NCBI GenBank assembly: GCA_964511435.1
Contig: CAZEFH010000003.1
Span: 1,283-65,282, forward strand
Source of the DNA: an uncultured Candidatus Saccharibacteria bacterium
GTDB lineage: Bacteria; Patescibacteriota; CPR2; UBA1875; CAIMLA01
Direction of reading: 5' to 3'
Length of the DNA: 64,000 bases
In this document: positions 1 to 21,829 of the stretch, one piece after another
Layout of the letters: every line of letters starts with the position of its first letter
Position numbering within the stretch: the stretch's first letter is position 1
Translations under genes and position numbers: made by a program
Notes under the pieces: model-generated
The model's input: only the letters and a program-made list of their open reading frames with translations
The model's database searches: none
What the model was told of the DNA's origin: nothing

Positions 1-221
1 TGGCATCATAATACCATTTGATAAAACCATACTGCCTTTTCGCTGCTGAGTGTTCTGTTTGTATTGTTTTTAGAAGCTCTTTTTCTTCACCTCGAGCTAG
101 GCGTATCGTCCATTCATCAATAATTGGAGTTAACCCAAGGTCCTCGAGTTTCTTGATAAGGGAAACCTTCTCATTCCTCTTCTTGGAACTTCCGCAAATA
201 ACTAGTTTCATAATGAAATAA
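1..221 (-). CDS. Hypothetical protein, N-terminal part only (start codon at 219-221, continues past the window edge)
   Basis: Reverse-strand reading from ATG at 221 gives MKLVICGSSKKRNEKVSLIKKLEDLGLTPIIDEWTIRLARGEEKELL... with no stop before position 1. The N-terminal MKxVICGSS resembles Rossmann/LOG-like starts, but this is weak. The + strand ORF 18..221 in the track is judged spurious. Confidence 0.35.
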
Positions 222-242: not shown

Positions 243-321
243 CAAAAAAGGCTTAATAAAGCCTTAAAATATTCATGGTGGAGCATAGTAGAAGTAGTTT
301 TGAACTACTTCTACCCACCAT
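243..321. repeat. Copy 1 of a repeat resembling the tmRNA 3'-end plus its terminator (terminator hairpin aaggctt..aagcctt, then catggtggagc, then a 12-bp extended hairpin)
   Basis: aaaaaggcttaataaagccttaaaatattcatggtggagc closely matches 9741-9781 (the ssrA terminator plus the last 9 nt of tmRNA) and 1088-1130. It is followed by a perfect hairpin, gtagaagtagtt/aactacttctac nested in atggtgg/ccaccat. Confidence 0.6.
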
Positions 322-336
322 TATTATATCGTTAGT

Positions 337-1029
337 TTATTTAGCTGTTTGTGTTTTATGCTTACGTGGAATGAAATAGTTGAGGTGCCACAAGATATGG
401 AGAATCGATATCTCTGCCATTACTGTGCCACCGATAACGTGCCAGTATATCGTGGAGAAGGGAAAGTTTAGTACTAGGCCATAAGTGACTTTGAGCACGA
501 GTAAAATTCCAAATATTCCAGCCGGGATAAAGCTAAAGAGAAGGGTATAGTTCCAAATTTTCTTATGAGTAATAGTTTTAATTTTTTCGAACTTCGACAG
601 TAACCAAGTAGCCAGATATAGACCAAGAGTAACTATTGTCGTTTCTAAGAAGTAATAATTTTTTGTTGGATTCTTGATTTCATTTGTCTTCTCTTGTTGC
701 TTTTCTGAGACAATCTGATCCGTAGAGGTCCCACTACCCGTAACAAGTGATTTAGCTATGTCATTAGCGGAGCTGGGCTCAAGGCCAGCATTGTCATGAA
801 GTTTCTGAATCTCATCAGAGGTACTGATGGTTATCCCTAGTAGCTTACCAAGATTCTCGGCATATTTGGCGGCAGATATTTTATAAAAATCAGCAACTTC
901 CTGAACGCTCATTGCCTTAATTTCACCGCCAGATAGGCTTGTCCCATCATCTTCGGCAAAAACAGCTGTAAGGGGGGAAAGAGTGAGTAATAAACCGAAA
1001 GTAATAAGAATTGATTTTAGCTTTTTCAT
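337..1029 (-). CDS. Secreted or membrane-anchored protein of unknown function (N-terminal signal peptide, C-terminal transmembrane helices)
   Basis: 230-aa ORF. The N-terminus MKKLKSILITFGLLLTLSPLTAVFA looks like a signal peptide, and two to three hydrophobic helices lie near the C-terminus. Flanked by repeat copies 1 and 2. Confidence 0.5.
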   Translation of the reverse strand: MKKLKSILITFGLLLTLSPLTAVFAEDDGTSLSGGEIKAMSVQEVADFYKISAAKYAENLGKLLGITISTSDEIQKLHDNAGLEPSSANDIAKSLVTGSGTSTDQIVSEKQQEKTNEIKNPTKNYYFLETTIVTLGLYLATWLLSKFEKIKTITHKKIWNYTLLFSFIPAGIFGILLVLKVTYGLVLNFPFSTIYWHVIGGTVMAEISILHILWHLNYFIPRKHKTQTAK

Positions 1030-1087: not shown

Positions 1088-1158
1088 CAAAAAAAGCTTC
1101 GGAAAGCCTTAATAATTGTCATGGTGGAGCATAGTAGAAGAAGTTTGGAACTACTTTT
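1088..1158. repeat. Copy 2 (degenerate) of the tmRNA-3'-end/terminator-like repeat
   Basis: aaaaagcttcggaaagccttaataattgtcatggtggagcatagtagaagaagtttggaactactttt. The hairpin arms carry mismatches. There is no upstream gene on the strand it would terminate, so it is an orphan copy. Confidence 0.55.
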
Positions 1159-1241: not shown

Positions 1242-2891
1242 ATGATAATATTAGGCGTTAATGGTTGGTTTACTCGAAGTCATGATGGTTCCGCGGCATT
1301 AATTAAAGATGGAAAAATAGTTGCTTTCGCTGAGGAAGAAAGATTTACTAGGTATAAACATGCGTTTGAGCAGCTCCCCCATAGAGCAATTCAGTCTTGT
1401 TTAGATAAAGCAGGTATAACGTCAGATGAAATTGATGTTCTTGCAATTGGCTGGGATTATGAACTTAAGTACCGTTTACGCAATATTGAGTTTCCTGATA
1501 CCGATCTTGCAGATTTATATTTACCAAAAGATATTTTTAAAAGAAAAAAAGAGCCCAAGGTGGTAATTGTTAATCACCATTTAGCTCATGCAAGCCTAGC
1601 ATACAGGCTGTCAAAAGCCGACAAGTCAGCAATCTTGGTAGTTGATGGTCAAGGTGAAGATTCTTCTATTTCAATTTGGAAGGGTAATGACGGTGAGATT
1701 GAGCTTATCCAAAAGTATCCCCTAGAAGCTTCAGTGGGGTTTTTTTATGAATCTATCAACAAGATGATTGGATTCGATTACTTTGATAGTGGTAAAACCA
1801 TGGGTCTTTCTAGTTATTCTCAAGATTCGCTTGAAATAACAGAGATTGATACATATGGCAGTGATGTGACATTCAATTTACCAAACAAAATTGAATTTAG
1901 AAATGATTGTCTTGATGAGCAAATGCAGTTTATGGATGCGTGGGACAAAGTATATTCTAAATATGGCTTAAAGAAGTCTGAACAGAAAAATATGAATAGT
2001 GCTTTTTACGAGAATGAGTATTTACTAGCAGGAACGGCGCAGAAAAATCTTGAAAGAATTATGCTTAAATTAGTATTTATTGCCAAGGAAATTGTCGGTA
2101 CAGATAATATCTGTATTGCTGGAGGGACAACTCTAAACTGTAATGTGAATTCTATTATCAAGAAATCTAACATTTTCAAGAATGTTTTTGTCTTTCCAGT
2201 AACAAATGATACGGGCGTTAGTCTTGGGGCGGCATTGGAGACAAGCTATAATGAAGGAGGCGAAAAGTTCTATGATTTTACTCCTTATCTAGGTCCAGAC
2301 TTTTCTGATACAGAAATTGAAGATTGTCTAATAAGACATAAATTGCATTATGCAAAGTCTGAAAATGTTGCGAAGGAAGCCGCTAAGTATCTGAGTGAAG
2401 GCAAGATTATTGCTTGGTTTCAAGGAAGGATGGAGGCAGGTCCTAGAGCGCTTGGAAATAGAAGCATAATAGCCAACCCAACTATCAAGGGTATGAATGA
2501 TAAAGTAAATAACATAAAAAACCGTGAATTATGGAGACCGTTAGCACCAAGTGTATTAGCCGACTACGCAGAAGAGATATTTGATGATAGTTTTTATTCT
2601 CCCTATATGCTTCATACTTTTAATATTAAACAAGACTATTTATCTCGTATACCCGCTGTTTGTCATGTTGATAAATCGGCACGCCCACAAATGGTAAAAA
2701 TTGATGATAATCCTCTGTTTTATTCCTTAATAGATGAATTTAAAAATACTACAGGGGTCCCAATAGTTCTAAATACTTCGCTAAATGGACCAGGAGAGCC
2801 TCTTATTTGTAAGCCAGACGAAGCAGCAAAAATATTATTAAGGACAAAGATTGACTATCTTTTTATCGGCAACTATATAGCTTGGAAATAG
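1242..2891 (+). CDS. Carbamoyltransferase, NodU/CmcH/TobZ family (Kae1-like + YrdC-like fold)
   Basis: 549 aa. The N-terminus ILGVNGWFTRSHDGSAALIKDGKIVAFAEEERFTRYKH and the HHLAHA motif are typical of O-carbamoyltransferases of the NodU/NovN/TobZ family. The size also fits. Confidence 0.75.
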   Translation: MIILGVNGWFTRSHDGSAALIKDGKIVAFAEEERFTRYKHAFEQLPHRAIQSCLDKAGITSDEIDVLAIGWDYELKYRLRNIEFPDTDLADLYLPKDIFKRKKEPKVVIVNHHLAHASLAYRLSKADKSAILVVDGQGEDSSISIWKGNDGEIELIQKYPLEASVGFFYESINKMIGFDYFDSGKTMGLSSYSQDSLEITEIDTYGSDVTFNLPNKIEFRNDCLDEQMQFMDAWDKVYSKYGLKKSEQKNMNSAFYENEYLLAGTAQKNLERIMLKLVFIAKEIVGTDNICIAGGTTLNCNVNSIIKKSNIFKNVFVFPVTNDTGVSLGAALETSYNEGGEKFYDFTPYLGPDFSDTEIEDCLIRHKLHYAKSENVAKEAAKYLSEGKIIAWFQGRMEAGPRALGNRSIIANPTIKGMNDKVNNIKNRELWRPLAPSVLADYAEEIFDDSFYSPYMLHTFNIKQDYLSRIPAVCHVDKSARPQMVKIDDNPLFYSLIDEFKNTTGVPIVLNTSLNGPGEPLICKPDEAAKILLRTKIDYLFIGNYIAWK

Positions 2892-2960
2892 TTTACACAA
2901 AGGTAAGAATGTGTTATAATCGCGTCGTATAGTTAGGCACTATAAGAACACTGTTAGGGG

Positions 2961-3569
2961 GTGGGTGACTTGAGGACTGAGCCGTTCTTTGATGAGAAGA
3001 ACCGTCTAGTCAAAGAAACAATCCAAGACGGGAGGGTCGTAAGGTTCTACTTGGGAGATGATTGTCAGGGGGTCATCCACAACAAAGATGGGGAAGAATA
3101 CGTATTCGATCAGCGAGGTAAGCGTCGCTGGAGGGGTACTATTCATCCAGAAGACATGGCCGTCGAATCAGAAGCTATGGACGATTTCGGAGTCATCCTG
3201 ATTAAACCAGACGGCGTTGACCAGGCAGGTGTAATCACCGAGCTCCTCACAGAGGAGGCTTTCACCGTTCTTGTGGCAAGGGAAATGATTCTGACTGTTA
3301 CTATAGTCGAAGAATTGTATCCCATGTTCTACCACGAGAGTTACGAGACCCCCTTCTTCGATTACATGACTTCCGGAGTTGTAAAGGCAATGATTGTGCA
3401 GAGTGATAGTTGCACATCGAGACTCCAGAAGTTCAAGGGAGTTATCCGTAGCAGATACGGCAGGAATGGTCACATGCGTAATATGCTTCATTGTTCAAGC
3501 AGTCACAAAGATGCGCTCAGAGAGGCATCTGTGCTATTCTGTATAGGACAATTGAGGCGAAACAACTAG
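2961..3569 (+). CDS. Nucleoside-diphosphate-kinase-like domain protein with a roughly 65-aa N-terminal extension
   Basis: The core FGVILIKPDGV...GRNGHMRNMLHCSSS matches the NDK signature (IKPDGV; GRN..H.SDS with the catalytic His). The ORF is noticeably GC-richer than its neighbours. The start codon is uncertain: GTG at 2961, TTG at 2970 or an internal ATG near 3157. Confidence 0.5.
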   Translation: MGDLRTEPFFDEKNRLVKETIQDGRVVRFYLGDDCQGVIHNKDGEEYVFDQRGKRRWRGTIHPEDMAVESEAMDDFGVILIKPDGVDQAGVITELLTEEAFTVLVAREMILTVTIVEELYPMFYHESYETPFFDYMTSGVVKAMIVQSDSCTSRLQKFKGVIRSRYGRNGHMRNMLHCSSSHKDALREASVLFCIGQLRRNN

Positions 3570-3605
3570 CGGAGGACGCTTAGGCGTCCTCCGCTGAAGG
3601 GAAAA

Positions 3606-4943
3606 ATGTTTATTAAATTACTCTTGTTAATATATATAGTTTTTTCTATACGCTGGATTTACAAAATCTTAAGTTCATATATTTGGATTATTACCTCAAG
3701 AAAAGCTAAAAATAGTTCTTCCGAAGATAAAAAACATTCAATATTCATTTTACTCCCGGTTTTATATGAAAATTATCGCTTACAAGAAGCAGTTGATTAT
3801 TTTAGACAAATATTAGAAAAACACCCAAATATTAAACTTGTCATAATTACTACAGTCCGTGAAAGCTGTTACGAAGATTCGATAACTATAGATTTGGCAA
3901 AAAAGTTAAGCTCGAACAATATAATTCATATCCATGCAAACGACCCTGGTGGAAATATGGCAACCCAACTAAATTGTGCGGTCGATGCACTTTCTGCTGG
4001 TAAATATTTTGAAGACAAAAGGATAGTTTTTGGGGTTTATAATGTTGATTCTAGACCAGAAATAGAAACTTTTGATTGGTTATTAAGTCATCCAAATTTA
4101 AAGGATGATTTATTTTGTTTTCAACAGTATGGTGATTATACAAAAAATACAGACACAATCTCGAAGGCAAGGAATAAATATAGTTTGTTGGCATCATCTT
4201 ATTGGCAAAATAGATGGAGTATGGGCTACGAGATTGCTAGTGCTCTAAGACAATTTTCTAAATTTAGAATACTCAACAATAACTGGAGAACTAATTATTG
4301 TGTTGGTCACGGGGTATTTATAAGTGAGAGCCTGCTAAAAAAGATTGATGGTTTTTGCGGTAAAACTCATAACGAAGATATTTTTCTTGGTCTTACTATA
4401 TCCAATTTAAAGGTCAGGATTTTCCCCATTCCATTTTTTGATTTAGCAGATTCTCCAGATGATTTGTTTTATTTATTCAAACAGAAAACTAATTGGTTTA
4501 TGGGGACATTTCAAGTTATAAAATATTACAGCATTATAAAAGAAAACAAATATTTTGATCATAATAAATTTAGACTTGCTTTTCAGACCCTTCAAATATT
4601 TTTATTATCTCAGTTTTGGATTTGGGGACCAAATGTACTTATGCTTTTGTCCACATATGCTTTATTAACATTAAATTTACAGCTCATATATCTTACCTTG
4701 CTCACATATGTTTTCTACCTAGTATTGCCAAACACACTAGGACAATACTATTTAAAAAAGACAAAGTTTGAGAAGAATTCACTGCTTAATCTATTTTTTA
4801 TATCTTTTTGTGGAAGTTGGCTTGCATCAATTATTCATGGTATTGCACCATTCAACTCTATAAGAAAGTATTTTTTACAAAAGTTACTTGGTATAGAATT
4901 TTTAAAAGGGAAAACGGATATGAGGTTTTATGAAGAGGAATAA
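3606..4943 (+). CDS. Membrane protein with an N-terminal glycosyltransferase-like (GT-A-like) domain and a C-terminal polytopic membrane domain
   Basis: 445 aa. There is an N-terminal transmembrane segment, then a soluble domain (…LLPVLYENYRLQEAV…IHIHANDPGGNMATQLN…), then at least four hydrophobic helices at the C-terminus. Its end overlaps the next gene. The family assignment is tentative. Confidence 0.4.
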   Translation: MFIKLLLLIYIVFSIRWIYKILSSYIWIITSRKAKNSSSEDKKHSIFILLPVLYENYRLQEAVDYFRQILEKHPNIKLVIITTVRESCYEDSITIDLAKKLSSNNIIHIHANDPGGNMATQLNCAVDALSAGKYFEDKRIVFGVYNVDSRPEIETFDWLLSHPNLKDDLFCFQQYGDYTKNTDTISKARNKYSLLASSYWQNRWSMGYEIASALRQFSKFRILNNNWRTNYCVGHGVFISESLLKKIDGFCGKTHNEDIFLGLTISNLKVRIFPIPFFDLADSPDDLFYLFKQKTNWFMGTFQVIKYYSIIKENKYFDHNKFRLAFQTLQIFLLSQFWIWGPNVLMLLSTYALLTLNLQLIYLTLLTYVFYLVLPNTLGQYYLKKTKFEKNSLLNLFFISFCGSWLASIIHGIAPFNSIRKYFLQKLLGIEFLKGKTDMRFYEEE

Positions 4944-6546
4944 ACTGCGCGTAAAACTGGTTTATTATAGGGCAATGATGTCTCAATCAGCTGCTTCACT
5001 TACTATGGGTAGGATTGCTAGCCTTCTAAAAAGAGATAATTTTTTATATGATTTAGTGCTCCTAGAGTCAGATGATATCAATACGATTGAGAGAATCGGA
5101 CTAGACGGCTCAGTGATAATCGCAAAACCAAACTTTAAAGACTATGACATTATTTTGCCGCTACTAAAAAAGATTAAGCAGAAGTGCTCTGATATGCAAA
5201 TATTCTTATGTGGTCCTTATATCAGTTTGGATTACAAAAATATTATCCTAAAAGAAAATTGGCTTGATGGCATAATAGTAGGATTTCCTGAGGAACCAAG
5301 TCATAATCTCGTAAAAGCTATTAGCCAGGGTAAATCTATTGATGATATCGATAATGTGGTTACCCTTAAGAATATTGAACAGTTTAAGATAAGTTCAAAT
5401 AGGATTGATTTCGAGGACTTGCCGACTCCTACTAGAGATATAGAAAGATTTGAGGCTGGTTCATTCACGAACATAGAAGCTTCAAGGGGTTGTGATAACT
5501 TTTGTAGCTATTGTCACATACCTTTATATAGCAGGCAGTGCAACCTAACGAAGAGGGAGCTTAGAAGTAACGAGTCGATAGTAGATGAGATCGAAGAGCT
5601 AAGGGCTATGGGCAAGAACTTCTTGATTTTTAATGATAGTCATTTCTGGTCAAACGATTGTGACAATGAACGGGTGATCAACTTCTGCGACATCTTAATC
5701 AAGAGAAAACTTTCAATCCACTTTTATATTTATCTAAGAAGTTTTCCATTCCCAAATGAGGAAGTGCTTTTGAAATTGAGAGATGCTGGTCTGGCTAGGG
5801 TCTTTATAGGGGTTGAGAATGCTACAGTAGAAAATCAGAAAAGATATAATAAAATTGTAAATCTTGATCAGTTTGATCAAGTTAAATCTAGATGTGAAAA
5901 CATGGGAATAAATGTCCATATTGGGTTCATGCTTTTTAATCCTTACCTTGCATTTAGTGAGATTAAGCCTAATCTGGATTACTTATTAAAAATTAATAAG
6001 ATGTTTCGTTTAGGAGTAATAACTGAACCTGCTCGGGTTATTCCTGGAAGTAAGCTTGAAAAGGATTTAGAGCGAGACGGACTATTGTTTAGAGCCGAGT
6101 CATATAATGCTCCTGTTTTTGAATATAAATTTAAAGATGAGAAAACTGCAATACTATTTCGAGAAATTCGACAGTTATTTATCGGGGAAATATATCTACA
6201 CAGATATAGATTTGAGTATTACGCAATTACTGGACAATTATTCCGAGATCTGACAGAACTAAGCTATTCTGGAATTTCGAATACTTTTAACAAGGAATAT
6301 GAGCAATTCTTACTTTCTAGAGATTACGGTTCACGTTTGATTTATGACTTCCTGATTAGTCAAATTGATGAAATCGATATTAATGGAAAAATAAGCCTTG
6401 ATAACAAGAATGTTTTTAAGGATAAATTTATTGAAGCATGTGCTGACATAGAATTGAAGTGGACTATGCTAAAAAATTCTATTAGTAAAACAGCTGCAAA
6501 AGATGTAATTAAAGAGGTGTATTTTGGCAAAGAAAGAATTAGTTAG
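4930..6546 (+). CDS. B12-binding-domain radical SAM enzyme (class B radical SAM, likely C-methyltransferase or similar tailoring enzyme)
   Basis: 538 aa. CDNFCSYCHIP is the CxxxCxxC radical-SAM cluster motif. The N-terminal roughly 180 aa resemble a cobalamin-binding domain, as in the Fom3/GenK/TsrM class. Overlaps the upstream gene by 14 nt. Confidence 0.65.
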   Translation: MKRNKLRVKLVYYRAMMSQSAASLTMGRIASLLKRDNFLYDLVLLESDDINTIERIGLDGSVIIAKPNFKDYDIILPLLKKIKQKCSDMQIFLCGPYISLDYKNIILKENWLDGIIVGFPEEPSHNLVKAISQGKSIDDIDNVVTLKNIEQFKISSNRIDFEDLPTPTRDIERFEAGSFTNIEASRGCDNFCSYCHIPLYSRQCNLTKRELRSNESIVDEIEELRAMGKNFLIFNDSHFWSNDCDNERVINFCDILIKRKLSIHFYIYLRSFPFPNEEVLLKLRDAGLARVFIGVENATVENQKRYNKIVNLDQFDQVKSRCENMGINVHIGFMLFNPYLAFSEIKPNLDYLLKINKMFRLGVITEPARVIPGSKLEKDLERDGLLFRAESYNAPVFEYKFKDEKTAILFREIRQLFIGEIYLHRYRFEYYAITGQLFRDLTELSYSGISNTFNKEYEQFLLSRDYGSRLIYDFLISQIDEIDINGKISLDNKNVFKDKFIEACADIELKWTMLKNSISKTAAKDVIKEVYFGKERIS

Positions 6547-7393
6547 TTTTCCTAAAGCTATTGAATTTCAGACGGCTTCTTTTTGTAATGGAGGTTGCTC
6601 CATCTGTCCCTATAAAGAGGTCTCAACGAAGCTTCCAGCGGGTGTTATAGAAGAAGATATATTTAAACGTTTAGTCGATGAGATTTCGGAGCATGAAGAA
6701 GTTAGAATAATCCCTTATTTTAATAACGAACCATTCTTAGATAAAAAATTTGTGGACAGACTTAGGTATATCAGATCCGTTTGTCCAAAACATGTTATAG
6801 AAATATCTACCAATATATCTATGCTGACCAGCAATGTACTCGATAAAATGGACGGCCTATACATTGATGATTTAAGAATCAGCTTCTTTTCTTTTAATGA
6901 GAAGTCTTATGAAAATATTATGACTGGTCTAAATTGGGATGTTTCGAAAACAAATCTAGATAATCTGGTGAAAAATAATAGATACAAAAGAATTTTTGGA
7001 AAGATTAGTATAGTTAATGTCGATATAGAAGAACTAAAAAAAGAAGATATAGATTTAGCTAAAAAATATTGCGAAGAAAAAGGACTCAGTTATGAATTTT
7101 GGGGGTTTTTCGATAGGGCGGGCAATGTTAAAAATAGAACGAATAATGTACATAAAGAAGTCGTTAGGGGTTGTGAACAGAATAGACCAATAGAAAGAAT
7201 GCACATAATATTCGATGGGAAAGTTATTTTGTGCTGTATGGACTGGAAGAGAGAATATATCTTAGGCGATTTGAAAATGGATAGTATAAAAGAGATTTGG
7301 AATTCACAAGAATATTCAAAAATAAGAGACGAAATATATGATCCGCAAATTTCGCCTCCCGATCTTTGTAAAAAATGTAAATTAGCAATCTAA
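6524..7393 (+). CDS. Radical SAM protein with a C-terminal SPASM/twitch-like Cys-rich domain
   Basis: FCNGGCSICPY (CxxxCxxC) sits near the N-terminus. The C-terminus GKVILCCMDW…CKKCKLAI carries extra Cys clusters typical of SPASM domains. Overlaps the upstream gene by 23 nt. Confidence 0.6.
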   Translation: MAKKELVSFPKAIEFQTASFCNGGCSICPYKEVSTKLPAGVIEEDIFKRLVDEISEHEEVRIIPYFNNEPFLDKKFVDRLRYIRSVCPKHVIEISTNISMLTSNVLDKMDGLYIDDLRISFFSFNEKSYENIMTGLNWDVSKTNLDNLVKNNRYKRIFGKISIVNVDIEELKKEDIDLAKKYCEEKGLSYEFWGFFDRAGNVKNRTNNVHKEVVRGCEQNRPIERMHIIFDGKVILCCMDWKREYILGDLKMDSIKEIWNSQEYSKIRDEIYDPQISPPDLCKKCKLAI

Positions 7394-8053
7394 ATGAACC
7401 GAAAAACTGGTTATCAAAAATCAATAATCGTTGTTGAGGGAAATGTTTATTCGGGCAAGACGACACTTTGCCTTAAACTCTCAAGCTCTACTAAGTTTAA
7501 GATATTTGAAGACCATGCCTTTGTTGAATTACCGAGAGCTATTCGGAATGATGCAGATGCTCTCTCAAACCAGATTAAATACCTTGAGATAGAAGTATCT
7601 AGATCAGAAAAGATTGGTGAAGAAAAGGGCTACATACTAGACAGGTCAATAATTTCTATTTTTGCTTTTACTTACTATCTTTCAACTCAAGGATACCAAA
7701 TAAAAGAATTTTTTCTTGATGTTGTTGAAAAACTGATACGTGAAAATAGGATAACGATACCTGACTACCTGATTTATCTAAAAGTAAGTGCTGATGAGTT
7801 AGCTGAAAGATTTCAAATTAACAGAGATGCTTCAAAAGCCACGGAAGAGTTTTATGTCAATGAGGAATTTATTGGTATTATGGACCACTTTTGCTGTAAT
7901 TTAATCAGTAAGGTTGGTGGATTAGTGATTACTGGAGAGGATGAGGACAATGTACTAACGAAATCAATCCAATATATTGAAGCTGGCAAAAGGGTTAATA
8001 AAGAGATATTTTTTCAGGTACTCTTCAGTTTAATGAGAGTTTTCGATGAGTAA
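7394..8053 (+). CDS. Deoxynucleoside/nucleoside-monophosphate-kinase-like P-loop protein
   Basis: IIVVEGNVYSGKTTL is a P-loop, followed by DRSIISIFAFTYY (the dNK/dCK-like DRS motif). 219 aa. Directly abuts the previous gene's stop. Confidence 0.55.
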   Translation: MNRKTGYQKSIIVVEGNVYSGKTTLCLKLSSSTKFKIFEDHAFVELPRAIRNDADALSNQIKYLEIEVSRSEKIGEEKGYILDRSIISIFAFTYYLSTQGYQIKEFFLDVVEKLIRENRITIPDYLIYLKVSADELAERFQINRDASKATEEFYVNEEFIGIMDHFCCNLISKVGGLVITGEDEDNVLTKSIQYIEAGKRVNKEIFFQVLFSLMRVFDE

Positions 8054-8699
8054 ATGGTCTAATATATATACAAAATCTATATCTAAAGTAGGCGGATTCG
8101 AAGAATACTATCAAAGTAAACTTATAAGTAAAAAGATTTTGATTGATACTATTACAAGTGAATATGGCGGCACAAAACCTATTGCTGAGATTGGATCGGG
8201 TACAGCAATATTGCCAATTTATTTTTCGAAAAAAGGGTATGATTCTTGGGGGATTGAAGCTGATTTTGAAATGTATACATTATCACGTGAATTTGCCGAG
8301 AAAATTGAATCAACAAATATCAAACTTATTAATGATAATTTTCTTGAATTAGAATTGCCCGAAAAATCTCTCAAATTAATTTACAGTAATGGCTTGCTGG
8401 AACATTTTGATGATGAGAAAATAAAATTCTTAGTACAAAAACAGCTGATGGTCGCGGATAGAGCTATTATATCTGTTCCGACTGATTACTTTATGTCTAG
8501 TCAAGCTGTATACGGTGATGAAAGATTTCTACCTATAAAATATTGGGAACAATTGATTACTTTGTCTGGTGGTAATATCTTATATAAGAGATATTTTGAA
8601 TATAATAATCATTTTCTAAAAATATTAAATAATATAACACAAGGCAGACTTAGATTTAATCCGCCCTTTGTTATATTCATTGTTTCTAAGAATTCGTGA
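8046..8699 (+). CDS. Class I SAM-dependent methyltransferase
   Basis: IAEIGSGTAILPIYF is the glycine-rich SAM-binding motif I, followed by an acidic motif II (WGIEAD). 217 aa. Overlaps the upstream gene by 8 nt. Confidence 0.55.
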   Translation: MSKWSNIYTKSISKVGGFEEYYQSKLISKKILIDTITSEYGGTKPIAEIGSGTAILPIYFSKKGYDSWGIEADFEMYTLSREFAEKIESTNIKLINDNFLELELPEKSLKLIYSNGLLEHFDDEKIKFLVQKQLMVADRAIISVPTDYFMSSQAVYGDERFLPIKYWEQLITLSGGNILYKRYFEYNNHFLKILNNITQGRLRFNPPFVIFIVSKNS

Positions 8700-9108
8700 T
8701 TTCTAGCGTTCTTTTTATGAGACTTTGAAAGTAATTTGGAACTTTGTTATTCTCGCCAAATTTCTCTAGATCTAAAATATCGACCCACTTATAGTCCTGA
8801 TGTTCCTCCGGGTTTAGGATTACATTGCCTGAGATAAAATTGCTTATAAAGAAAACGGTAATATAGTGCATCTCTTTTGAACTCTCGTAGTTAGCAAAGT
8901 AGTGAAATAATTTTGGTTCTGTCGTTGAAATACTTGTTTCTTCTGTTGTTTCTCTAGACACACCCATTGTAAGGTCCTCACTATTCTCAAGAGAGCCTCC
9001 TGGAATATCCCAATAATTTGGAAGATTAGATACGCTTGACGCTCTTTTTAGTAAAAGAACTTTGTCATCATTTCTTACTACATTGTGAATAATTATTTTT
9101 ATTGCCAT
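8686..9108 (-). CDS. NUDIX hydrolase
   Basis: GGSLENSEDLTMGVSRETTEETSI matches the NUDIX box Gx5Ex7REUxEExGU. 140 aa. Confidence 0.7.
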   Translation of the reverse strand: MAIKIIIHNVVRNDDKVLLLKRASSVSNLPNYWDIPGGSLENSEDLTMGVSRETTEETSISTTEPKLFHYFANYESSKEMHYITVFFISNFISGNVILNPEEHQDYKWVDILDLEKFGENNKVPNYFQSLIKRTLEITNS

Positions 9109-9111
9109 TTA

Positions 9112-9720
9112 TTAACCTTCCTTTATTTTAGTAATTATTTCCTTATAAATTATTCTATGAGCGAAATTATTTGGATGAAATCCATCATACGTAATTTTAT
9201 TATATTTAATTAATTTATCAAAAACATTAATATAATTAATCTGGTTATCTATACACACATTATGCAAAAGATGATTATATTCTTTAATATTTGAGTTAGT
9301 TTGATATAAACTAGGTCTCCAAATGACAGGGTATGTTTTTATTTCATTAACAGGTGGAATGCTGATAATATATACATTACTTGAATATTTTTTTGTGACC
9401 TTAGATATTTCAGAAATATTTTTTCTAAAATCTTCTGGATTAATAAAGTACTTATTATTTTTTATATATTTTTGCGAATCATTTATACCTACAAAAATGA
9501 CTATTTTGGAATTGTTATTACGGTTTCTGGCTTTAAGTTCCGAATCTATTCTTTGAAGCAATTTTGTAGATGTGTCGCCAGGTATACTGAGATTATAAAA
9601 TTCTGAAATATTGGTTTGGCATTTATTAAAACTTTTTCTTATTAATGCTGTCCATTCCTTAGCCTTTGAACTCGTTTCAAAGGATAGGCTGTCACCAAAC
9701 ACAAATATCGTACTATTCAT
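9112..9720 (-). CDS. SGNH/GDSL-family hydrolase (esterase/acylhydrolase)
   Basis: The N-terminus IFVFGDSLSF carries the GDS(L) block I with the catalytic Ser. A DGFHPN-like block V (YDGFHPNNFAH) with the catalytic His lies near the C-terminus. Confidence 0.65.
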   Translation of the reverse strand: MNSTIFVFGDSLSFETSSKAKEWTALIRKSFNKCQTNISEFYNLSIPGDTSTKLLQRIDSELKARNRNNNSKIVIFVGINDSQKYIKNNKYFINPEDFRKNISEISKVTKKYSSNVYIISIPPVNEIKTYPVIWRPSLYQTNSNIKEYNHLLHNVCIDNQINYINVFDKLIKYNKITYDGFHPNNFAHRIIYKEIITKIKEG

Positions 9721-9740
9721 AATATTATTATAGCATAAAT

Positions 9741-9768
9741 AAAAAGGCTTAGGAAAGCCTTAATAAAT
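9741..9768 (-). terminator. Rho-independent terminator of ssrA
   Basis: Reading the minus strand after the tmRNA CCA end gives a hairpin aaggcttt-ccta-aagcctt followed by ttttt. Confidence 0.7.
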
Positions 9769-9772
9769 GTCA

Positions 9773-10165
9773 TGGTGGAGCTGGTGGGTACTGCCCCCAC
9801 GTCCGAAAGCGGAATCAGACTGATTTGTAGCAACCTTACTCTAGTCTAGTAGTTTCGATCAAGTGGTAAAGACTGGAGAAAATCCACTATTTCTATTCAC
9901 TAAGTCTTAGGCTCGCTTAGTAAACTCACGAGTAGCATCCTGACATATATGACACTCAGACAGACGATTCAGGCCTCGACTGCTAGAATGGTTACTGTTA
10001 TTAGGCAGCAACTGGCGCAAAACTGTTTACGCGGAAAGCGTTTGCAATCTTGCTAGCAAAAGTGTTTGCACTTATGCGTTGATACGCTTGGTAACGCGGA
10101 CGTATCATTCCGCGGATTGCATCATTCTGATTTCAAGATACCTTCGTCGAAGCTATTTCAGCCCC
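9773..10165 (-). ncRNA. ssrA: tmRNA (transfer-messenger RNA, SsrA), about 393 nt
   Basis: The minus strand reads 5'-GGGGCUGAAAUAGCUUCGACGAAGG… and ends …GGACGUGGGGGCAGUACCCACCAGCUCCACCA-3'. The acceptor stem GGGGCUG/CAGCUCC has a G3:U pair, the Ala identity element. There is a T-arm-like GUGGG/CCCAC, a terminal CCA, and an internal ORF GCA AAC GCU UUC CGC GUA AAC AGU UUU GCG CCA GUU GCU GCC UAA UAA. This gives the tag ANAFRVNSFAPVAA with a double stop, as in canonical SsrA tags ending in AA. Confidence 0.85.
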
Positions 10166-10193
10166 TGAAATGCGGTGTCCGAAGACAATTATT

Positions 10194-10221
10194 ATTATAG
10201 CACAAAATAGTAAAAAATCAA
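10194..10221 (-). promoter_or_regulatory. Putative sigma70-type promoter of ssrA
   Basis: The minus strand reads TTGATT-16 nt-TATAAT, with the -10 about 29 nt upstream of the mature tmRNA 5' end. This fits a short precursor leader. Confidence 0.45.
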
Positions 10222-11237
10222 GTATTTTGTTTGAAAGATTCAAGTTTTTGCAAGTAGAAAAACCCTAGACCTAGTGGTAACCAGAAATTGAGACCACGGA
10301 AGGCGATAGCGATTGCGGTGGCAGATACAAGTGGAACTCCGAAGGAGGTGAAGATTAGTACTATTACGGCTTCAACCGCCCCTACTCCCTCTGGCTGGGG
10401 CGAAATAACACGGGCAACCTCGGCAAAGACATAGCCGGCAACCAGGGCTCCGTAGTGAATCTTGATATCAAATGCGACAAAGATTACGAATAAAGACAGA
10501 ATGTTAATAATGTGGGCAATCAGGGCGTATCCTAGGGTTTCAGCAATTTTAAGATAATGTCCACTTATCATCGAAGCAGCTTCTCGAAGCTCTTCCGTGA
10601 TTGATTCGCCCCACTTCTTCAAGAGTTTCCTTTTACTACGGAATATCTTTAAGAAAAAGTTAACCACCTTTGCTATCCCGTTTAAGAACTTTGTAGTACC
10701 AAGGGGGTTCTTGGCAGCAGTGAATAGTAGTAGTGGTGGTAAGGCAGTAGGAATAACGAATATAGTGGCCCCGATAATTTCATAGGTATTGAGAAAGTTA
10801 TTTCGGGATAGAAAGTAGACTGCAAATATCAGGAGTACAGTAAATGAGGCATAGCTTGAAACAGTACTGACGAGGTAGCCAACCACAGCATGAGTAGAAG
10901 ATTCTTTTCTGCGCGCTGCATCATCGGCAAAAAGAATGGTGCCTGAGTTGCCTGCTGTCGGAGCCAGGGTATTTACAAACAGGGATCCGAGAACGAGGGG
11001 AATAAGATGTTTTAACTTGCGATACATCTTTACTGCTTCGAAAGCCTTCTTGGTCATAAATGAATATACAACGTAGTAGACGGCTTGAAGTAGGGCGGCT
11101 ACTAGAAGCCAGCGCCAACTGCCTCGGGAAAATGCATCTACAACTTCGGACAGCTCTTTTAGATGAAAAAATACATAAGTAATAAATCCTATAAAGAGGA
11201 GCGAAAAAATAATATTACGTGCATTAAGCTTCTTCAT
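10218..11237 (-). CDS. Polytopic membrane protein of the lysylphosphatidylglycerol-synthase-TM-like / flippase-like (UPF0104) family
   Basis: 339 aa with about eight transmembrane segments. Overlaps the upstream GT2 gene by 14 nt, giving a GtrB-like GT2 plus flippase-like arrangement. Paralogous in architecture to 28963..29976. Confidence 0.5.
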   Translation of the reverse strand: MKKLNARNIIFSLLFIGFITYVFFHLKELSEVVDAFSRGSWRWLLVAALLQAVYYVVYSFMTKKAFEAVKMYRKLKHLIPLVLGSLFVNTLAPTAGNSGTILFADDAARRKESSTHAVVGYLVSTVSSYASFTVLLIFAVYFLSRNNFLNTYEIIGATIFVIPTALPPLLLFTAAKNPLGTTKFLNGIAKVVNFFLKIFRSKRKLLKKWGESITEELREAASMISGHYLKIAETLGYALIAHIINILSLFVIFVAFDIKIHYGALVAGYVFAEVARVISPQPEGVGAVEAVIVLIFTSFGVPLVSATAIAIAFRGLNFWLPLGLGFFYLQKLESFKQNT

Positions 11238-11958
11238 GGCTATATTTCTTGATAAATCTACGATAACGATTGTTGAGAGCAGCCATTTCTAGGAATTGCA
11301 GACCGACACGATAGAAGGGGAAAGCGCGGAAAATATTTCCAACCATTCTAAAATCAGCCATTACACCCTGCCAGTAATCCATCTTCTCGTGCTTTGGGGT
11401 GGCGTAAAGATTCGGTAGGTAGACACTGATAAACGTTTTACCGCGGTCTAGAAATGAATCGTTCATTAGTACTTCGAGGCCATAGCCGATACGGGGCTTG
11501 GTCCAGATATTGTAGTCAGCCAGCATTTTCTTTTTGATGCAGCGCTCACCACTAACGAAGTCCATTTTGAACCATTTGTAGATATTCGAGGAATTGCCTC
11601 GAATACTGAGAGTCCAATCAACGAGATTGGTTAGGACCGGAATCGCAAGATCAGTTACGTTCTCGGCTGTAAGATGCTTAAGATCGGCATCGAGAAGCAT
11701 CACCACATCGTTTTTTGCATATTTAAGTCCATATTTTACAGCTAAAGTTTTGCCTAAAGAGTCCTTATGAACGTGTACGTGGGCCTTGTATTTTCGGGCA
11801 ACTTCGACGGTATTATCGGTACAACCGTCGCAGACCACAACTACGTCGTCAACCATCGGATGGTTACACACAATCTTTAGAACATTGCCGATACGATTTT
11901 CTTCATTACGAGCTGCGATGATGACGCTGACTTTTTTCTCTCTTGCTTCCATATGCAC
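11224..11958 (-). CDS. Family 2 glycosyltransferase (polyprenyl-phosphate sugar transferase-like)
   Basis: VSVIIAARNEENRIGNVL…VVVCDGCTD…LLDADL is the GT2 DxD-type N-terminal signature. 244 aa. Confidence 0.7.
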   Translation of the reverse strand: MHMEAREKKVSVIIAARNEENRIGNVLKIVCNHPMVDDVVVVCDGCTDNTVEVARKYKAHVHVHKDSLGKTLAVKYGLKYAKNDVVMLLDADLKHLTAENVTDLAIPVLTNLVDWTLSIRGNSSNIYKWFKMDFVSGERCIKKKMLADYNIWTKPRIGYGLEVLMNDSFLDRGKTFISVYLPNLYATPKHEKMDYWQGVMADFRMVGNIFRAFPFYRVGLQFLEMAALNNRYRRFIKKYSHEEA

Positions 11959-12004
11959 ATTCTACCTGATTTTACGCTATAATTGTACTATAAAGAGGGA
12001 AATC

Positions 12005-13318
12005 ATGAGAATTGCTTACCTTACCGACACATATCAGCCCGAAGTGAATGGAATTGTGACTAGTATTACAAACTTTACCGAGAGACTAGCTGCTGCTGGT
12101 CATGAAGTCCTGATTATTGCGCCGAAGTATAACAAGAAGAAGGACCATCCACTGCCTAGGATTAAGATTAAGAGGTACAAAAGCTTCTCTTTTGCAACCA
12201 ATAAGGAGACGCGCATCGCTTACCCGTCAGTTATTGGAATTATTTCAGACCTTCGAGAATTTAAGCCTGACATCATACATATTCAAACACCGATGAGCAT
12301 CGGTGTTACCGGGGTAATTGCGGCGAAAATTCTGGGAATCCCCAGTATTCAGACCTATCACACATATATTCCTGACTTTATGATTTATGTTAGCCCCTAT
12401 AATCTACTAGGTTTTGGGAAAATGGCTAATGCAATCGCGAGTTCTCGTTTCGCAAAGGCAATTATTAAGTCTGATACATATAAGTTGCTTGAGGAGACCG
12501 GCGATGGTATTACGCGTCGTTCAGAAGTAATTTCGGCGCTAAAGAAGCTTCGCCGCCGCTTCACTCGCCCTGGAGAAAATAGGTTTTCTGATCGGATGGC
12601 ATGGGATATTACCCGTTTTCTGTATGGTAAATCAGACATTGTACTGACGCCTTCTGTAGCTCTAGCGAAGCTGCTCACTCGTCACCGTGTCGGAGTTCCA
12701 GTACTGGACATGAGTAATGGTATTGAGTACGACCACTTCAAAAAGAAAAACCGATATTTTATCAGGAACAGGATAATATATGTCGGTCGCCTAGGACTTG
12801 AAAAGGGAATTGATGTAGTAGTAAAGGCTTTTGCTCTGGCAAAAAAACAGAACCCTGAGCTGAAACTAGACCTATATGGTGATGGTCCTGCCAAGGAAAT
12901 GCTCCATCAGCTAGCCCAGAAACTAGGTATTGAAGATAGTATCCACTTTGTTGGTTTTGTTTCACGCGCCGAGATTAAAAGGTCTTTGAAGCGAAATGAC
13001 TGTTTTGTGACAGCGAGTACAATGGAGACTCAGGGTCTCGTAATTCTCGAGGCGATGGCGGCAGGACTTCCAGTAATTGGGGTGAATGCACTTGCGGTTC
13101 CTGAGCTAGTTCACGACGGGGAAAACGGATATCTAGTAGAGCCACATAACTATAAGCAAATGGCAGAAGCAATGCTAAAACTAACAGAATCAGCCTCAAG
13201 AAACAGGGAATTTGGTAATAAATCCTCTGAATATGCCGAGGTCCACAATGTCACACACTGTGCCGAGAAACTTGAGAGTGTCTACGGAAATCTTCTAGCA
13301 GGAAAATACAAGAAATAA
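12005..13318 (+). CDS. Family 4 (GT-B) glycosyltransferase
   Basis: The start is revised to ATG 12005 (MRIAYLTDTYQPEVNGIVTSI), which has an RBS (aagaggga). The track ORF starting at 11786 overlaps the divergent GT2 gene. The C-terminus has the GT4 motif EAMAAGLPVIG. Confidence 0.75.
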   Translation: MRIAYLTDTYQPEVNGIVTSITNFTERLAAAGHEVLIIAPKYNKKKDHPLPRIKIKRYKSFSFATNKETRIAYPSVIGIISDLREFKPDIIHIQTPMSIGVTGVIAAKILGIPSIQTYHTYIPDFMIYVSPYNLLGFGKMANAIASSRFAKAIIKSDTYKLLEETGDGITRRSEVISALKKLRRRFTRPGENRFSDRMAWDITRFLYGKSDIVLTPSVALAKLLTRHRVGVPVLDMSNGIEYDHFKKKNRYFIRNRIIYVGRLGLEKGIDVVVKAFALAKKQNPELKLDLYGDGPAKEMLHQLAQKLGIEDSIHFVGFVSRAEIKRSLKRNDCFVTASTMETQGLVILEAMAAGLPVIGVNALAVPELVHDGENGYLVEPHNYKQMAEAMLKLTESASRNREFGNKSSEYAEVHNVTHCAEKLESVYGNLLAGKYKK

Positions 13319-13719
13319 TGCACTATATATGCGTCAATTTACGGATTTGTTCTATGTTTTGTTTGCTTTACTAAAGTAAGGTACTTCCAGATACTTTTGT
13401 CTATCGTCACAAAAGTATCCAAAAAGACTCTTTTTACACGTCAGTCTGCGGACTTCCGTGAAGGCTAGTCATCTCATTGGTAGTAGTATATTTAGTTTGA
13501 ACCAAGGTGACGAATAAATAATGTTTTTTCGAAAAATCGCTTTGCCGATTTAGGCCGACATCATAAGTTACAAATTCCAAACATTATATAGAATAATGAT
13601 TAAAATCTATAGTTCCTTCTCTTCGCCTAGAATAACAAAATTAAGTTTTGTAACGAATGACGAGTTTGATTTTTCTTGAACTTAACTCCATTTTCTTTCA
13701 AGAGAAAATGGAAAAAGAA

Positions 13720-18189: not shown

Positions 18190-18373
18190 TTATTAGGCCT
18201 TAATACTTAGGAAACTATAACACTTTCTGCTATCGTTGGCAAATATTTCGATTGCTATATTTTCCTTGTAATGGAGAAGAAAAAGTGTAAGATAGTGTCA
18301 TGTTTCTCACGTAGAAATGCACCGCGTCTACGGACGCTACATCATCCAACTACTGTAGAGGGGTAGGATCATC

Positions 18374-19291
18374 ATGTATAACGGACACCGCATGGTTTGT
18401 GAGGATGGTTGGTACGTCCAGACAGGCCGGGATGGAGTCCGGTTTGGTTATGGCGACCCTGTTCTCGACGAAGAGGATTCCATCTTGCTCGTGCCATTTC
18501 TGGTCGAGTTGTTCGTCCTCAGGCAGGACTACGTCAGGGACTTCCTCGATGCCACCAGTACTGCGAACCACGATGACTATGTTCTGCATCGACTCGTCCT
18601 GAGTCGACAGACAAGAGGAAGTCATCCCTATCACTATCTTGTGATTCAGAGGACGCGCGGAGAGGACTACCTCTTCGGTTTTACGGGCTCTGAATCTCGC
18701 AAGCTTAAGGAGGGACGCGATCGGTGTATCGTGATTCCGGGGAAGGCGTTGAAGCAGATCGCTGCCTCTGGATCTCGCTTGATTCAGGGGATTGGCTACA
18801 GGGCCACTATCGACGATGTCGACTGGAGGCTTTACGGTCATCTCCTGGTATCTAGTCCTGACGAAGGTCCTCGCAGGCCGGGACGAGTCCGGTTCTACCT
18901 GAATGATCACTCGGTGGTCATCAAGACGAAGCCGGATGGTCCTTGGCCGGAGCTGTGGCTGGCTGACAAAGAGGTTCTGCTTCGGGTCTTCCACGACTTC
19001 TCTCATCTTGGGGGCGCTGACAGCGTGAAGATCAGTGAGGTCTGGGACTCCGATAGCTTGCCAGTCACCTATTCGTATGTCATCAAGGGCTTCGGTGGCG
19101 AGTTCACACTCGAGCTCAGTGCAGTCATCCAGGAGGAGAGCGTCAGAAGCGCTATTATCCAGGGGGACTATGAGCTCTTTGATCACCTTGAGAATCTTCT
19201 CGAGATGTTCTGGGATCTCAGCTGCTACTCAGATGACTACAGCTTCAGCGACTACGATGACGACGACGGAGATGTCAGGTCACAGATCTAG
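18374..19291 (+). CDS. Hypothetical protein (GC-rich islet), acidic C-terminal tail
   Basis: 305-aa ORF in a 55-60% GC segment. The + frame has GC-biased third positions and evenly spread aromatics. It ends DYDDDDGDVRSQI. The overlapping minus-strand ORF 18350..19186 is judged antisense noise. Confidence 0.45.
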   Translation: MYNGHRMVCEDGWYVQTGRDGVRFGYGDPVLDEEDSILLVPFLVELFVLRQDYVRDFLDATSTANHDDYVLHRLVLSRQTRGSHPYHYLVIQRTRGEDYLFGFTGSESRKLKEGRDRCIVIPGKALKQIAASGSRLIQGIGYRATIDDVDWRLYGHLLVSSPDEGPRRPGRVRFYLNDHSVVIKTKPDGPWPELWLADKEVLLRVFHDFSHLGGADSVKISEVWDSDSLPVTYSYVIKGFGGEFTLELSAVIQEESVRSAIIQGDYELFDHLENLLEMFWDLSCYSDDYSFSDYDDDDGDVRSQI

Positions 19292-19300
19292 GGAGGAGCT

Positions 19301-19429
19301 ATGACTGAGCAGGCCGCGAACACTATCGGCTACATCGTCCTCGGTGGTTTGGGAGTCTTGCTCCTCTTGATGGCTGCGGTCTTCAAGGTCGGCAAGGGTG
19401 CCCAGAAGTTCTACAAGAATCTCGACTGA
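19301..19429 (+). CDS. Small hydrophobic peptide (42 aa, single TM)
   Basis: An RBS (gggaggag) lies 5 nt upstream of the ATG. The product is MTEQAANTIGYIVLGGLGVLLLLMAAVFKVGKGAQKFYKNLD. GC-rich, like the preceding gene. Confidence 0.4.
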   Translation: MTEQAANTIGYIVLGGLGVLLLLMAAVFKVGKGAQKFYKNLD

Positions 19430-19440
19430 GAGGGGGAGAC

Positions 19441-19677: not shown

Positions 19678-19713
19678 TTCGTGCCTTTCCTGGGAACAGG
19701 GAAAGTATTACGG

Positions 19714-21827: not shown

Positions 21828-21829
21828 GG

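Follow-up and report, generated by a model that had tools for sequence, protein, structure and literature searches.

What do nine tightly packed genes at the 3' end of the transfer-messenger RNA (tmRNA) gene, ssrA, of an uncultured Saccharibacteria bacterium encode, and how did they come to be there? The genes lie in a stretch of 64,000 nucleotides (nt) of contig CAZEFH010000003.1, the whole of which is called the window below. They encode two radical S-adenosylmethionine (SAM) enzymes, a membrane glycosyltransferase of family 2 (GT2), two nucleotide-type kinases, a NUDIX hydrolase and three tailoring enzymes. We tentatively read the locus as a mobile biosynthetic cassette in which a substrate derived from a nucleotide would have its sugar ring remodelled before being handed to a membrane synthase; we give this reading a little less than an even chance. 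Its gene content, the conservation of its core, its signatures of mobility and its nearest characterised relatives are matters of observation and are described before the reading is weighed.

The nine open reading frames (ORFs) occupy positions 1242–9720, seven on the plus strand (1242–8699) followed by two convergent ones on the minus strand (8686–9720). Neighbouring genes overlap by 14 nt at 4930/4943, by 23 nt at 6524/6546 and by 8 nt at 8046/8053; they abut at 7393/7394 and overlap convergently at 8686/8699. The G+C content (GC) of this island is 33.5%, versus 44.9% for the remainder of the window, where the genes are those of an ordinary bacterial housekeeping set (ArgS, DinB, TypA, PyrG and PheT among others). 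The island proteins are all divergent, and none of them reaches any curated NCBIfam cutoff. A preliminary description of the stretch had listed these nine ORFs with their orientations and five overlapping or abutting junctions, and had characterised the block as compositionally distinct and AT-rich with one GC-rich mosaic gene. All of this is correct, the GC-rich gene being that of the nucleoside diphosphate kinase (NDK)-like protein (47.6% GC inside an operon of 30–36% GC). Most of its domain assignments are also supported by Pfam; those of the two radical SAM enzymes needed other evidence or a change of type, as described below.

A homologue search with the B12-type radical SAM enzyme of the block returned about 40 full-length relatives (34–40% identity) in metagenome-assembled genomes (MAGs) of Patescibacteria and Woesearchaeota. 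The neighbourhoods of the homologues, 17 loci from species-representative genomes and 80 metagenome loci were compared with the window proteins and with family profiles. A four-gene core recurs in them: a synthase-type membrane GT2, the OxsB-like B12-type radical SAM enzyme, a BtrN-like twitch radical SAM enzyme and a dNK/Tmk-like kinase. Of the first 22 loci, 17 are complete enough to judge, and each of these has all four genes, as does every long-enough metagenome locus whose twitch enzyme is at least about 38% identical. Their order is mostly preserved and overlaps are frequent; dozens of bacterial and archaeal loci keep both at protein identities of 25–55%. Every variant has a second kinase, NDK-like in loci of the candidate phyla radiation (CPR) and Tmk-like in archaeal-type loci, and two alphaproteobacterial-type loci (L018 and L019) have three to four tandem P-loop kinases. 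One locus (L001) has an HD protein in the cassette and another (L026) has MazG-like, PfkB and YfbR-like HD genes; HD proteins are confined to these two among the loci compared. The B12-type family itself is small, with about 47 representative clusters among 1.84 billion proteins before a score gap, and the large sister group past the gap has no curated name.

The preliminary description had treated all nine genes as a unit. The unit is indeed syntenic in relatives, but only the glycosyltransferase, the two radical SAM enzymes and the kinase are constant. The same description had allowed for a set of separate housekeeping genes lacking synteny in relatives, which is not what the loci show. It knew of no described system with this combination, and none came up here: no curated family, PADLOC system or published description of the cassette was found using NCBIfam cutoffs, PADLOC and literature searches.

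More distant variants of the twitch enzyme locus carry an ABC exporter, an aminotransferase, ATP-grasp, SDR, a HAD phosphatase and a carbamoyltransferase; by their gene content these variants look like small-molecule sugar or aminocyclitol pathways. GT2 persists beside the twitch enzyme even in distant variants that have no B12 enzyme (L095 and L106). A truncated Hsp70/actin-fold ATPase of about 430 amino acids (aa) lies beside the cassette in four loci, including distant alphaproteobacterial-type ones (L009, 7490–8770; L014, 13136–13735; L018, 6178–7509; L019, 12903–14210), and may be a further accessory component. In L104, a 1405-aa ORF (9191–13405) is a large fusion with a domain related to the twitch enzyme.

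The first radical SAM enzyme of the core (538 aa, 4930–6546, plus strand; Pfam Radical_SAM, E-value 8.5e-12) belongs to class B, i.e., to the enzymes with a cobalamin domain, and is similar to OxsB and AprD4. Against the PDB, its family profile matches OxsB with 2.4e-23 (85.6 bits), and the next match has 49 bits. For an AlphaFold2 model (mean predicted local distance difference test score, pLDDT, 89.9) the best Foldseek match is again OxsB (2e-22, TM-score 0.66), then AprD4 (3e-17), with TsrM, TokK, CysS and MgmA lower. The B12-binding domain that the preliminary description had assigned to this protein has no match to Pfam PF02310 in the 538 aa, yet three lines of evidence speak for it: more than ten B12-dependent radical SAM families of NCBIfam (HpnJ and HpnR among them) match the protein over their full length, if below threshold, its sequence matches OxsB, and so does its fold. 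An N-terminal Rossmann cobalamin-binding domain is thus predicted in this enzyme.

The cluster motif of radical SAM enzymes is present as CX3CX2C, and its cysteines C188, C192 and C195 are invariant in the family. In the profile alignment with OxsB the invariant N68-F69 falls on N186-F187, G95 on the GG motif and E121 on the GE motif. Asn186 of OxsB is the residue closest to cobalt (PMC9204698, PMC13331322). The cassette enzyme shares with OxsB this Asn at the cobalt-proximal position and the layout of Rossmann, radical SAM and helical C-terminal parts. OxsB contracts the deoxyribose ring of dAMP, dADP or dATP with the HD phosphohydrolase OxsA as a partner (PMC9204698, PMC7074753). The likeness to the oxetanocin (OxsB/OxsA) and albucidin (AlbB/AlbA) pathways goes beyond OxsB being nearest by profile and fold: the cassette enzyme stands amid enzymes that set the phosphorylation state of nucleotides, some variants include an HD protein (L001, L026), and the cassette has a second radical SAM enzyme, as AlbA lies beside AlbB in the albucidin cluster (PMC7074753). 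It differs from both pathways by the addition of the membrane GT2, the dedicated kinases and the BtrN-like enzyme. Its hosts are mostly CPR and DPANN, whereas the known producers are Bacillus and Streptomyces.

The second radical SAM enzyme (289 aa, 6524–7393, plus strand) matches Pfam Radical_SAM (6e-11) and SPASM (1.4e-14). Its family profile matches BtrN in the PDB (2.9e-24, 89 bits), and the next match, YydG, has 33 bits. The match to BtrN falls into two stretches, the radical SAM core and the C-terminal auxiliary-cluster region. Conserved cysteines are C21, C25 and C28 of the core and four auxiliary ones, C217, C237, C282 and C285; the seven-cysteine SPASM pattern is not present in the family alignment. 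Since only four auxiliary cysteines are conserved, the domain is of the twitch type with a single cluster and not a full SPASM domain. The SPASM-type assignment of the preliminary description agrees with the Pfam match and gives way to a BtrN-like twitch enzyme on the cysteine pattern.

BtrN is the 2-deoxy-scyllo-inosamine dehydrogenase of the butirosin pathway, and the twitch enzyme shares with it the four-cysteine pattern and the match over the core and the C-terminal region. Among the structural matches of the B12-type enzyme, AprD4, the 1,2-diol dehydratase of the apramycin pathway, ranks second. In addition, the twitch enzyme of the distant variant L106 has as its companions an aminotransferase (Aminotran_3, seen in this locus only), an alcohol dehydrogenase, a carbamoyltransferase and a glycosyltransferase, a set that closely resembles an aminoglycoside pathway. 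Unlike in aminoglycoside pathways, neither an aminotransferase nor a 2-deoxy-scyllo-inosose synthase is encoded in the window or the close loci, the partners of the radical SAM enzymes are nucleotide kinases, and the glycosyltransferase is a membrane synthase. Aminoglycoside pathways use soluble glycosyltransferases. The idea of a nucleotide-centred natural-product logic, put forward in the preliminary description, gains from these comparisons, as the nearest families of the two radical SAM enzymes by profile and fold (OxsB, AprD4 and BtrN) all come from antibiotic pathways.

The third core protein is a membrane-integrated GT2 of the processive-synthase type (445 aa, 3606–4943, plus strand), with a GT-A domain and membrane helices. 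Besides the GT-A domain and interface helices, a single transmembrane helix at the N-terminus and three long helices at the C-terminus are predicted. The window protein itself has no Pfam match, and 13 of 18 family members match Glyco_trans_2_3. Structurally the protein is of the BcsA/hyaluronan synthase (HAS) type: a GT-A domain is fused to a membrane helical bundle, and the whole can be superimposed on known synthases. Of the canonical series of catalytic motifs (D, DxD, TED and Q(Q/R)xRW, in this order), the family has YNxDS (DxD-like), NED at 256–258 in the place of TED, and Q293...W297 on an interface helix, which make a partial likeness to BcsA and to hyaluronan and chitin synthases. It differs from processive GT2 synthases in that the Arg of QxxRW is not conserved at 293–297, and an additional invariant WQxRW (200–204) lies on an earlier helix, before NED. 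The predicted long helices (1 + 3) are fewer than in BcsA/HAS, and neither PilZ nor any other regulatory domain is present. In size and topology the protein is presumably comparable to NodC. The preliminary description had correctly recognised a glycosyltransferase-like membrane protein here but gave too little weight to it. Because GT2 is one of the most constant partners and is of the synthase type, the interpretation is drawn towards a membrane or exported glycoconjugate.

The kinase of the core (7394–8053, plus strand; Pfam dNK, 3e-9) belongs to the dNK/Tmk superfamily of P-loop kinases. The best PDB matches of its family profile are NDUFA10 (2.5e-6), dNK (1.7e-5) and Tmk (6e-5). NDUFA10, whose PDB entry is annotated only as a complex I subunit, is taken by us to have the dNK fold. 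The invariant residues are the P-loop GNVxxGKT, R70, D83-R84-S85 and R139 (the lid Arg), and the profile places the kinase between the dNK and Tmk families.

The NDK-like phosphotransferase (202 aa, 2961–3569, plus strand) matches Pfam NDK at residues 78–193 (7e-15), and its family profile matches NDK in the PDB (3vvt, 1.6e-20). Invariant in the family are K82, P83, D84, Y120, R163 and H177, among which are the nucleotide-binding Lys, Tyr and Arg and, with H177, the position of the catalytic His. An extra conserved N-terminal domain of about 70 aa has no known relative that we could find. The nearest relative of the protein has 51% identity, and 12 of the first 20 loci have the gene. A 199-aa record (P0202) is 99% identical to the protein, so translation probably starts at TTG 2970 and not at GTG 2961. 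A promoter-like site lies upstream of the gene (2892–2920, plus strand; TTTACA-17-TATAAT, 11 of 12 consensus matches, with an extended –10 TG), and a 12-bp GC-rich palindromic hairpin separates it from the GT2 gene (3568–3595). The hairpin is not a canonical terminator, because it has no T-run on the plus strand. Judged by the promoter-like site, the hairpin and the deviant GC, the gene looks as if it had been acquired separately and replaced or inserted from another source.

The MutT-like NUDIX hydrolase (8686–9108, minus strand; Pfam NUDIX, 4e-16) has MutT, NudB, NudI and NudG as its best NCBIfam matches, all below cutoff. Of 20 loci examined for it, 16 have the gene, and of the 26 complete loci 14 do. 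The nucleotide theme is robust: each variant has two to four dedicated, divergent nucleotide-type kinases, and most have nucleoside triphosphate (NTP) pyrophosphatases or nucleotidases.

The tailoring enzymes vary more. An O-carbamoyltransferase of the NodU/CmcH/TobZ family opens the operon (1242–2891, plus strand; Pfam Carbam_trans_C, 1e-65, and Carbam_trans_N, 2e-41) and matches PHROG 1601 with 5e-116. In the nearest relative, L107, a 67% identical homologue has the same position directly upstream of the NDK-like gene. Most loci lack a carbamoyltransferase; L024, L098, L099 and L106 have one in linkage with the cassette or the twitch enzyme, and its distribution makes it a lineage-specific but recurrent accessory. 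The class I SAM-dependent methyltransferase (8046–8699, plus strand; Pfam Methyltransf_25, 6e-8) is an accessory met with often: homologues are found in the cassettes of L001, L005, L010, L011, L015 and others, about a quarter of the loci. The GDSL/SGNH hydrolase (9112–9720, minus strand; Pfam Lipase_GDSL_2, 9e-15; 25.6% GC) has a homologue near the cassette in one other locus only (L014), and its link to the cassette is weak.

How the block came to its place is suggested by its borders. The tmRNA gene lies at 9773–10165 on the minus strand (Rfam RF00023, 84.8 bits, E-value 2e-31) and matches the model over its full length (positions 1–374), therefore the cluster sits immediately 3' of ssrA. 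ARAGORN reported no tmRNA in the window; the gene may be atypical enough to be missed by this program. A tag-like reading frame with a ...PVAA-stop end can be read in it by eye. The 3' terminus of the tmRNA together with its intrinsic terminator forms the proximal attachment (att)-like repeat (9741–9781, minus strand; hairpin 9744–9761 followed by a T-run). The distal direct repeat (1090–1130, minus strand) consists of the last 8–9 nt of the tmRNA (GCTCCACCA) and the terminator hairpin, 41 nt that are 93% identical to 9741–9781. These two copies bracket the block exactly, just outside its first and last genes. The 25-nt core of the repeat occurs exactly twice in the window, versus 0.00 occurrences expected by chance.

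A third, diverged copy (244–284, minus strand) has 68% identity to the reference copy (repeat family D1) and a terminator-like hairpin at 248–265. The copies at 1090–1130 and 244–284 share a further 26 nt (repeat D2, 72 nt, 76%) with a T-arm-like hairpin that is absent from the real tmRNA. They enclose a second mini-insert (285–1089) that holds one membrane-protein ORF of 230 aa (337–1029, minus strand). The N-terminus of this protein resembles a signal peptide, membrane helices lie towards its C-terminus, and DUF4234 gives a weak match. The third copy and the mini-insert suggest serial insertions at ssrA. Beyond the third copy, an ORF running off the window start (1–211, minus strand; MKLVICGSSKKRNEKVSLIKKLEDLG...) has no Pfam match over its 70 visible aa.

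Like known genomic islands at ssrA, the block lies at the 3' end of the tmRNA gene, has direct repeats of that end on both sides and deviates in GC. It differs from them in that no integrase is encoded between the repeats, only the last 8–9 nt of the tmRNA and the downstream terminator are repeated, and a third, older copy hints at serial insertions, the outermost flank lying beyond the window edge at position 1. The preliminary description had noted that the block lies at a classic integration site of islands; the flanking repeats are a new addition. The best reading is that horizontal transfer brought the nine genes, as a cassette, to the 3' end of ssrA, where they inserted.

Other loci show further signs of mobility. 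In 16 of 17 other loci the cassette has a lower GC than its flanks, and the cassette in L024 adjoins a TrwC relaxase and Prim-Pol. No clear excess of adjacent tRNA genes over expectation was seen for the cassette in other loci. Among the carriers are several lineages of Patescibacteria, Woesearchaeota and MAGs with the labels Methanosarcinales, Bdellovibrionales and Alphaproteobacteria. The patchy distribution, the low GC and the relaxase neighbour are the pattern of an accessory, horizontally exchanged trait. Some carriers come from animal guts: five ENA records (L068–L072), two of them titled human-gut metagenome, and an Alphaproteobacteria MAG from water-deer rectum (L019). The cassette is therefore not confined to CPR and DPANN lineages of groundwater and sediment. 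In the gut-metagenome cassettes the gene order is rearranged, the twitch enzyme lying a few kb off from the remaining genes.

Searches of 50,697 phage records and of IMG/VR turned up no homologue of the B12-type enzyme, the only cassette protein searched in this way. Phages have only distant homologues of the twitch enzyme (24% identity) in large Campylobacter phages (MK408758, FN667789 and others), some of them annotated as 'BtrN protein'. A record named 'Bacteriophage sp.' (MT835743) was rejected as a cassette carrier: it has a distant twitch homologue alone and no other cassette gene. The plasmid search gave distant radical SAM enzymes only, and in PHROGs only the carbamoyltransferase, NUDIX and kinase families have matches.

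Two themes thus recur, nucleotide kinases and pyrophosphatases on the one hand and a membrane or exported endpoint via GT2 on the other, and for this reason we favour the mobile biosynthetic cassette. The substrate, the order of the steps and the product that we infer are the following. The two kinases would phosphorylate a nucleoside or nucleotide obtained by salvage up to the di- or triphosphate level, at which OxsB works. The OxsB/AprD4-like enzyme would remove a ring hydrogen and rearrange or dehydrate the sugar, and the BtrN-like enzyme would oxidise a ring hydroxyl to a ketone. In the lineage of the window, the methyltransferase and the O-carbamoyltransferase may decorate the product. 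The NUDIX hydrolase could have the part that OxsA plays in oxetanocin biosynthesis, the trimming of phosphates, or could bar the analogue from the cell's own nucleotide pool. Finally, GT2 might glycosylate and export the product, or use a nucleoside diphosphate (NDP)-linked remodelled sugar as the donor for an exported glycan.

Several points weigh against this reading. The identity to OxsB is merely 16–17%. The cassette enzyme has no counterpart of the N-terminal domain I of OxsB (the alignment begins at OxsB residue 138), and its cluster motif is CX3CX2C, whereas that of OxsB is CX4CX2C (PMC9204698). The window has no OxsA homologue or HD protein by Pfam, and a NUDIX hydrolase is found instead. 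The core includes no nucleotidyltransferase, and the ORF list and Pfam give no integrase or recombinase among the nine ORFs between the repeats. The substrates of AprD4 and BtrN are aminoglycoside sugars and not nucleotides, so the pair of radical SAM enzymes is equally compatible with a hexose or a cyclitol. To our knowledge, a synthase-type membrane GT2 is not usual in nucleoside-antibiotic clusters and fits a surface polysaccharide better, and the hosts, mostly CPR and DPANN, are not expected to make cobalamin.

The main alternative, in our view less likely, is a surface glycan or glycolipid pathway. GT2 would make and translocate the glycan, and the radical SAM enzymes would remodel a hexose as an NDP-sugar or in nascent or lipid-linked form. 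The methyltransferase, carbamoyltransferase and GDSL hydrolase would decorate it, and the kinases, the NDK-like protein and the NUDIX hydrolase would merely supply or recycle nucleotides. There are precedents: the GT2 HpnI and the radical SAM enzyme HpnJ act in this way for hopanoid cyclitol ethers, and Nod factors are decorated by the logic of NodC, NodS and NodU. Such a pathway agrees well with a BcsA/HAS-type synthase as one of the twitch enzyme's most constant partners, even in L095 and L106, which have no B12 enzyme, with tailoring by a carbamoyltransferase, a methyltransferase and an SGNH hydrolase, which are classic in glycan modification, and with the action of BtrN and AprD4 on sugar or cyclitol rings; HpnJ is also among the sub-threshold NCBIfam matches. 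However, it leaves unexplained why two to four dedicated kinases per locus and NTP pyrophosphatases (NUDIX, MazG, HD) are conserved in the operon. The core also lacks a sugar-1-phosphate nucleotidyltransferase, an epimerase and a dehydratase, the closest relative of the B12-type enzyme, OxsB, is a nucleotide enzyme, and the cassette is rare and mobile and not a lineage-wide envelope trait. The two precedents themselves were rejected as identifications of the cassette. The NodU model scores 191 bits versus a cutoff of 1000, and Pfam finds no NodA or NodB homologue in the window; for a hopanoid HpnI/HpnJ-type pathway there are only the sub-threshold HpnJ and HpnR matches and no hopanoid genes.

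Three further explanations take the nucleotide theme elsewhere or deny it. The preliminary description had suggested a viperin-like antiviral module. In such a system, kinases would make an NTP, the radical SAM enzymes would convert it to a chain-terminating or toxic analogue and the NUDIX hydrolase would protect the host. Oxetanocin-type products are antiviral (PMC9204698), the location on an island and the patchy distribution fit such a role, and the cassette resembles prokaryotic viperins in pairing a radical SAM enzyme with a nucleotide kinase on an island. But the two enzymes belong to other subfamilies (class B and twitch): viperin is not found among the 41 significant fold matches of the B12-type enzyme, PADLOC gives no pVip match for the cassette radical SAM enzymes, and the B12-type enzyme is absent from the phage and IMG/VR records. 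PADLOC does give weak matches to a pair of candidate systems, PDC-M51A (radical SAM; 13 of 20 members, best 4e-14) and PDC-M51B/VakA (kinase; 3e-3 and 2e-7), to the candidate PDC-S07 (NUDIX) and to mad2. These are distant superfamily matches, many orders weaker than the within-family scores, and we rejected membership in these systems. A sensor or effector module is not evident, and we know of no nucleotide-based defence that features a membrane synthase glycosyltransferase and tailoring enzymes. We consider a defence system of this kind improbable and its viperin-like form discounted. The supply of modified (deoxy)nucleoside triphosphates for hypermodification of DNA or RNA is very improbable, although the NUDIX hydrolase, the modifying enzymes, the Tmk/dNK-like kinase and the NDK-like protein formally match the T4 scheme for hydroxymethyl-dCTP, where a pyrophosphatase yields the nucleoside monophosphate, which is modified and returned to the triphosphate by a deoxynucleoside monophosphate kinase and NDK. 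The twitch homologues in Campylobacter phages would suit this explanation but are just 24% identical, and the B12-type enzyme has no homologue in the viral sets searched; moreover, no polymerase, transglycosylase or DNA-binding partner is present, and a membrane GT2 in every complete locus would have no role. A chance neighbourhood of unrelated housekeeping genes is hardly credible: each domain family is common on its own, but synteny with order and overlaps kept at 25–55% identity in dozens of loci contradicts it, as do proteins that all diverge below every curated NCBIfam cutoff and an island with its own composition and flanking repeats.

Returning to the sugar-remodelling cassette, one may go further and suppose that CPR and DPANN organisms, as ultra-small symbionts, and some gut bacteria exchange it as a means of making a new class of sugar-ring-remodelled nucleotides, analogous to oxetanocin, whose release is coupled directly to a cellulose-synthase-like membrane enzyme. 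These might be secreted as a nucleoside antimetabolite that acts on hosts, competitors or viruses, or might be built into a new surface polymer of a nucleotide sugar altered by radical SAM chemistry. We hold this extended version to be doubtful. Each enzyme comes from a known superfamily; what appears to be new is the combination of an OxsB-like and a BtrN-like radical SAM enzyme with nucleotide kinases and a synthase-type GT2, and its occurrence in organisms with very small genomes appears to be undescribed as well. Solved structures of non-methylating cobalamin radical SAM enzymes are few, that of OxsB being one, and very few relatives of OxsB have been studied; the cassette family (about 47 clusters) is a compact, conserved one with a clear operon context for studying OxsB-type chemistry. 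A dedicated pathway of two radical SAM enzymes that is passed on horizontally would show that CPR and DPANN organisms, which are usually deemed metabolically minimal, invest in specialised chemistry, perhaps to interact with hosts or phages. The coupling of a synthase-type GT2 to nucleotide tailoring, undescribed as far as we could find, could reveal a new mechanism of export or glycosylation, and the cassette could reveal a new nucleoside scaffold of pharmacological interest.

Some features of the window outside the island deserve mention. On the far side of the tmRNA gene (10218–13318) lie a flippase-like membrane protein of the MprF/HpnL type, a GT2 and a 510-aa ORF (11786–13318); the flippase-like protein and this GT2 are envelope-glycosylation genes, and their GC is host-like. 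The region 18000–23000 is GC-rich (51–54%) and has long overlapping ORFs on both strands (18350–19186 on the minus strand, 18374–19291 on the plus strand) and no Rfam match. A single ORF of 2738 aa occupies 53911–62127 on the plus strand. At 23684–25306, on an otherwise bacterial chromosome, there is a full-length homologue of Elp3, a radical SAM/GNAT tRNA-modification enzyme (TIGR01211, 574 bits, cutoff 350). Elp3 is uncommon in bacteria.

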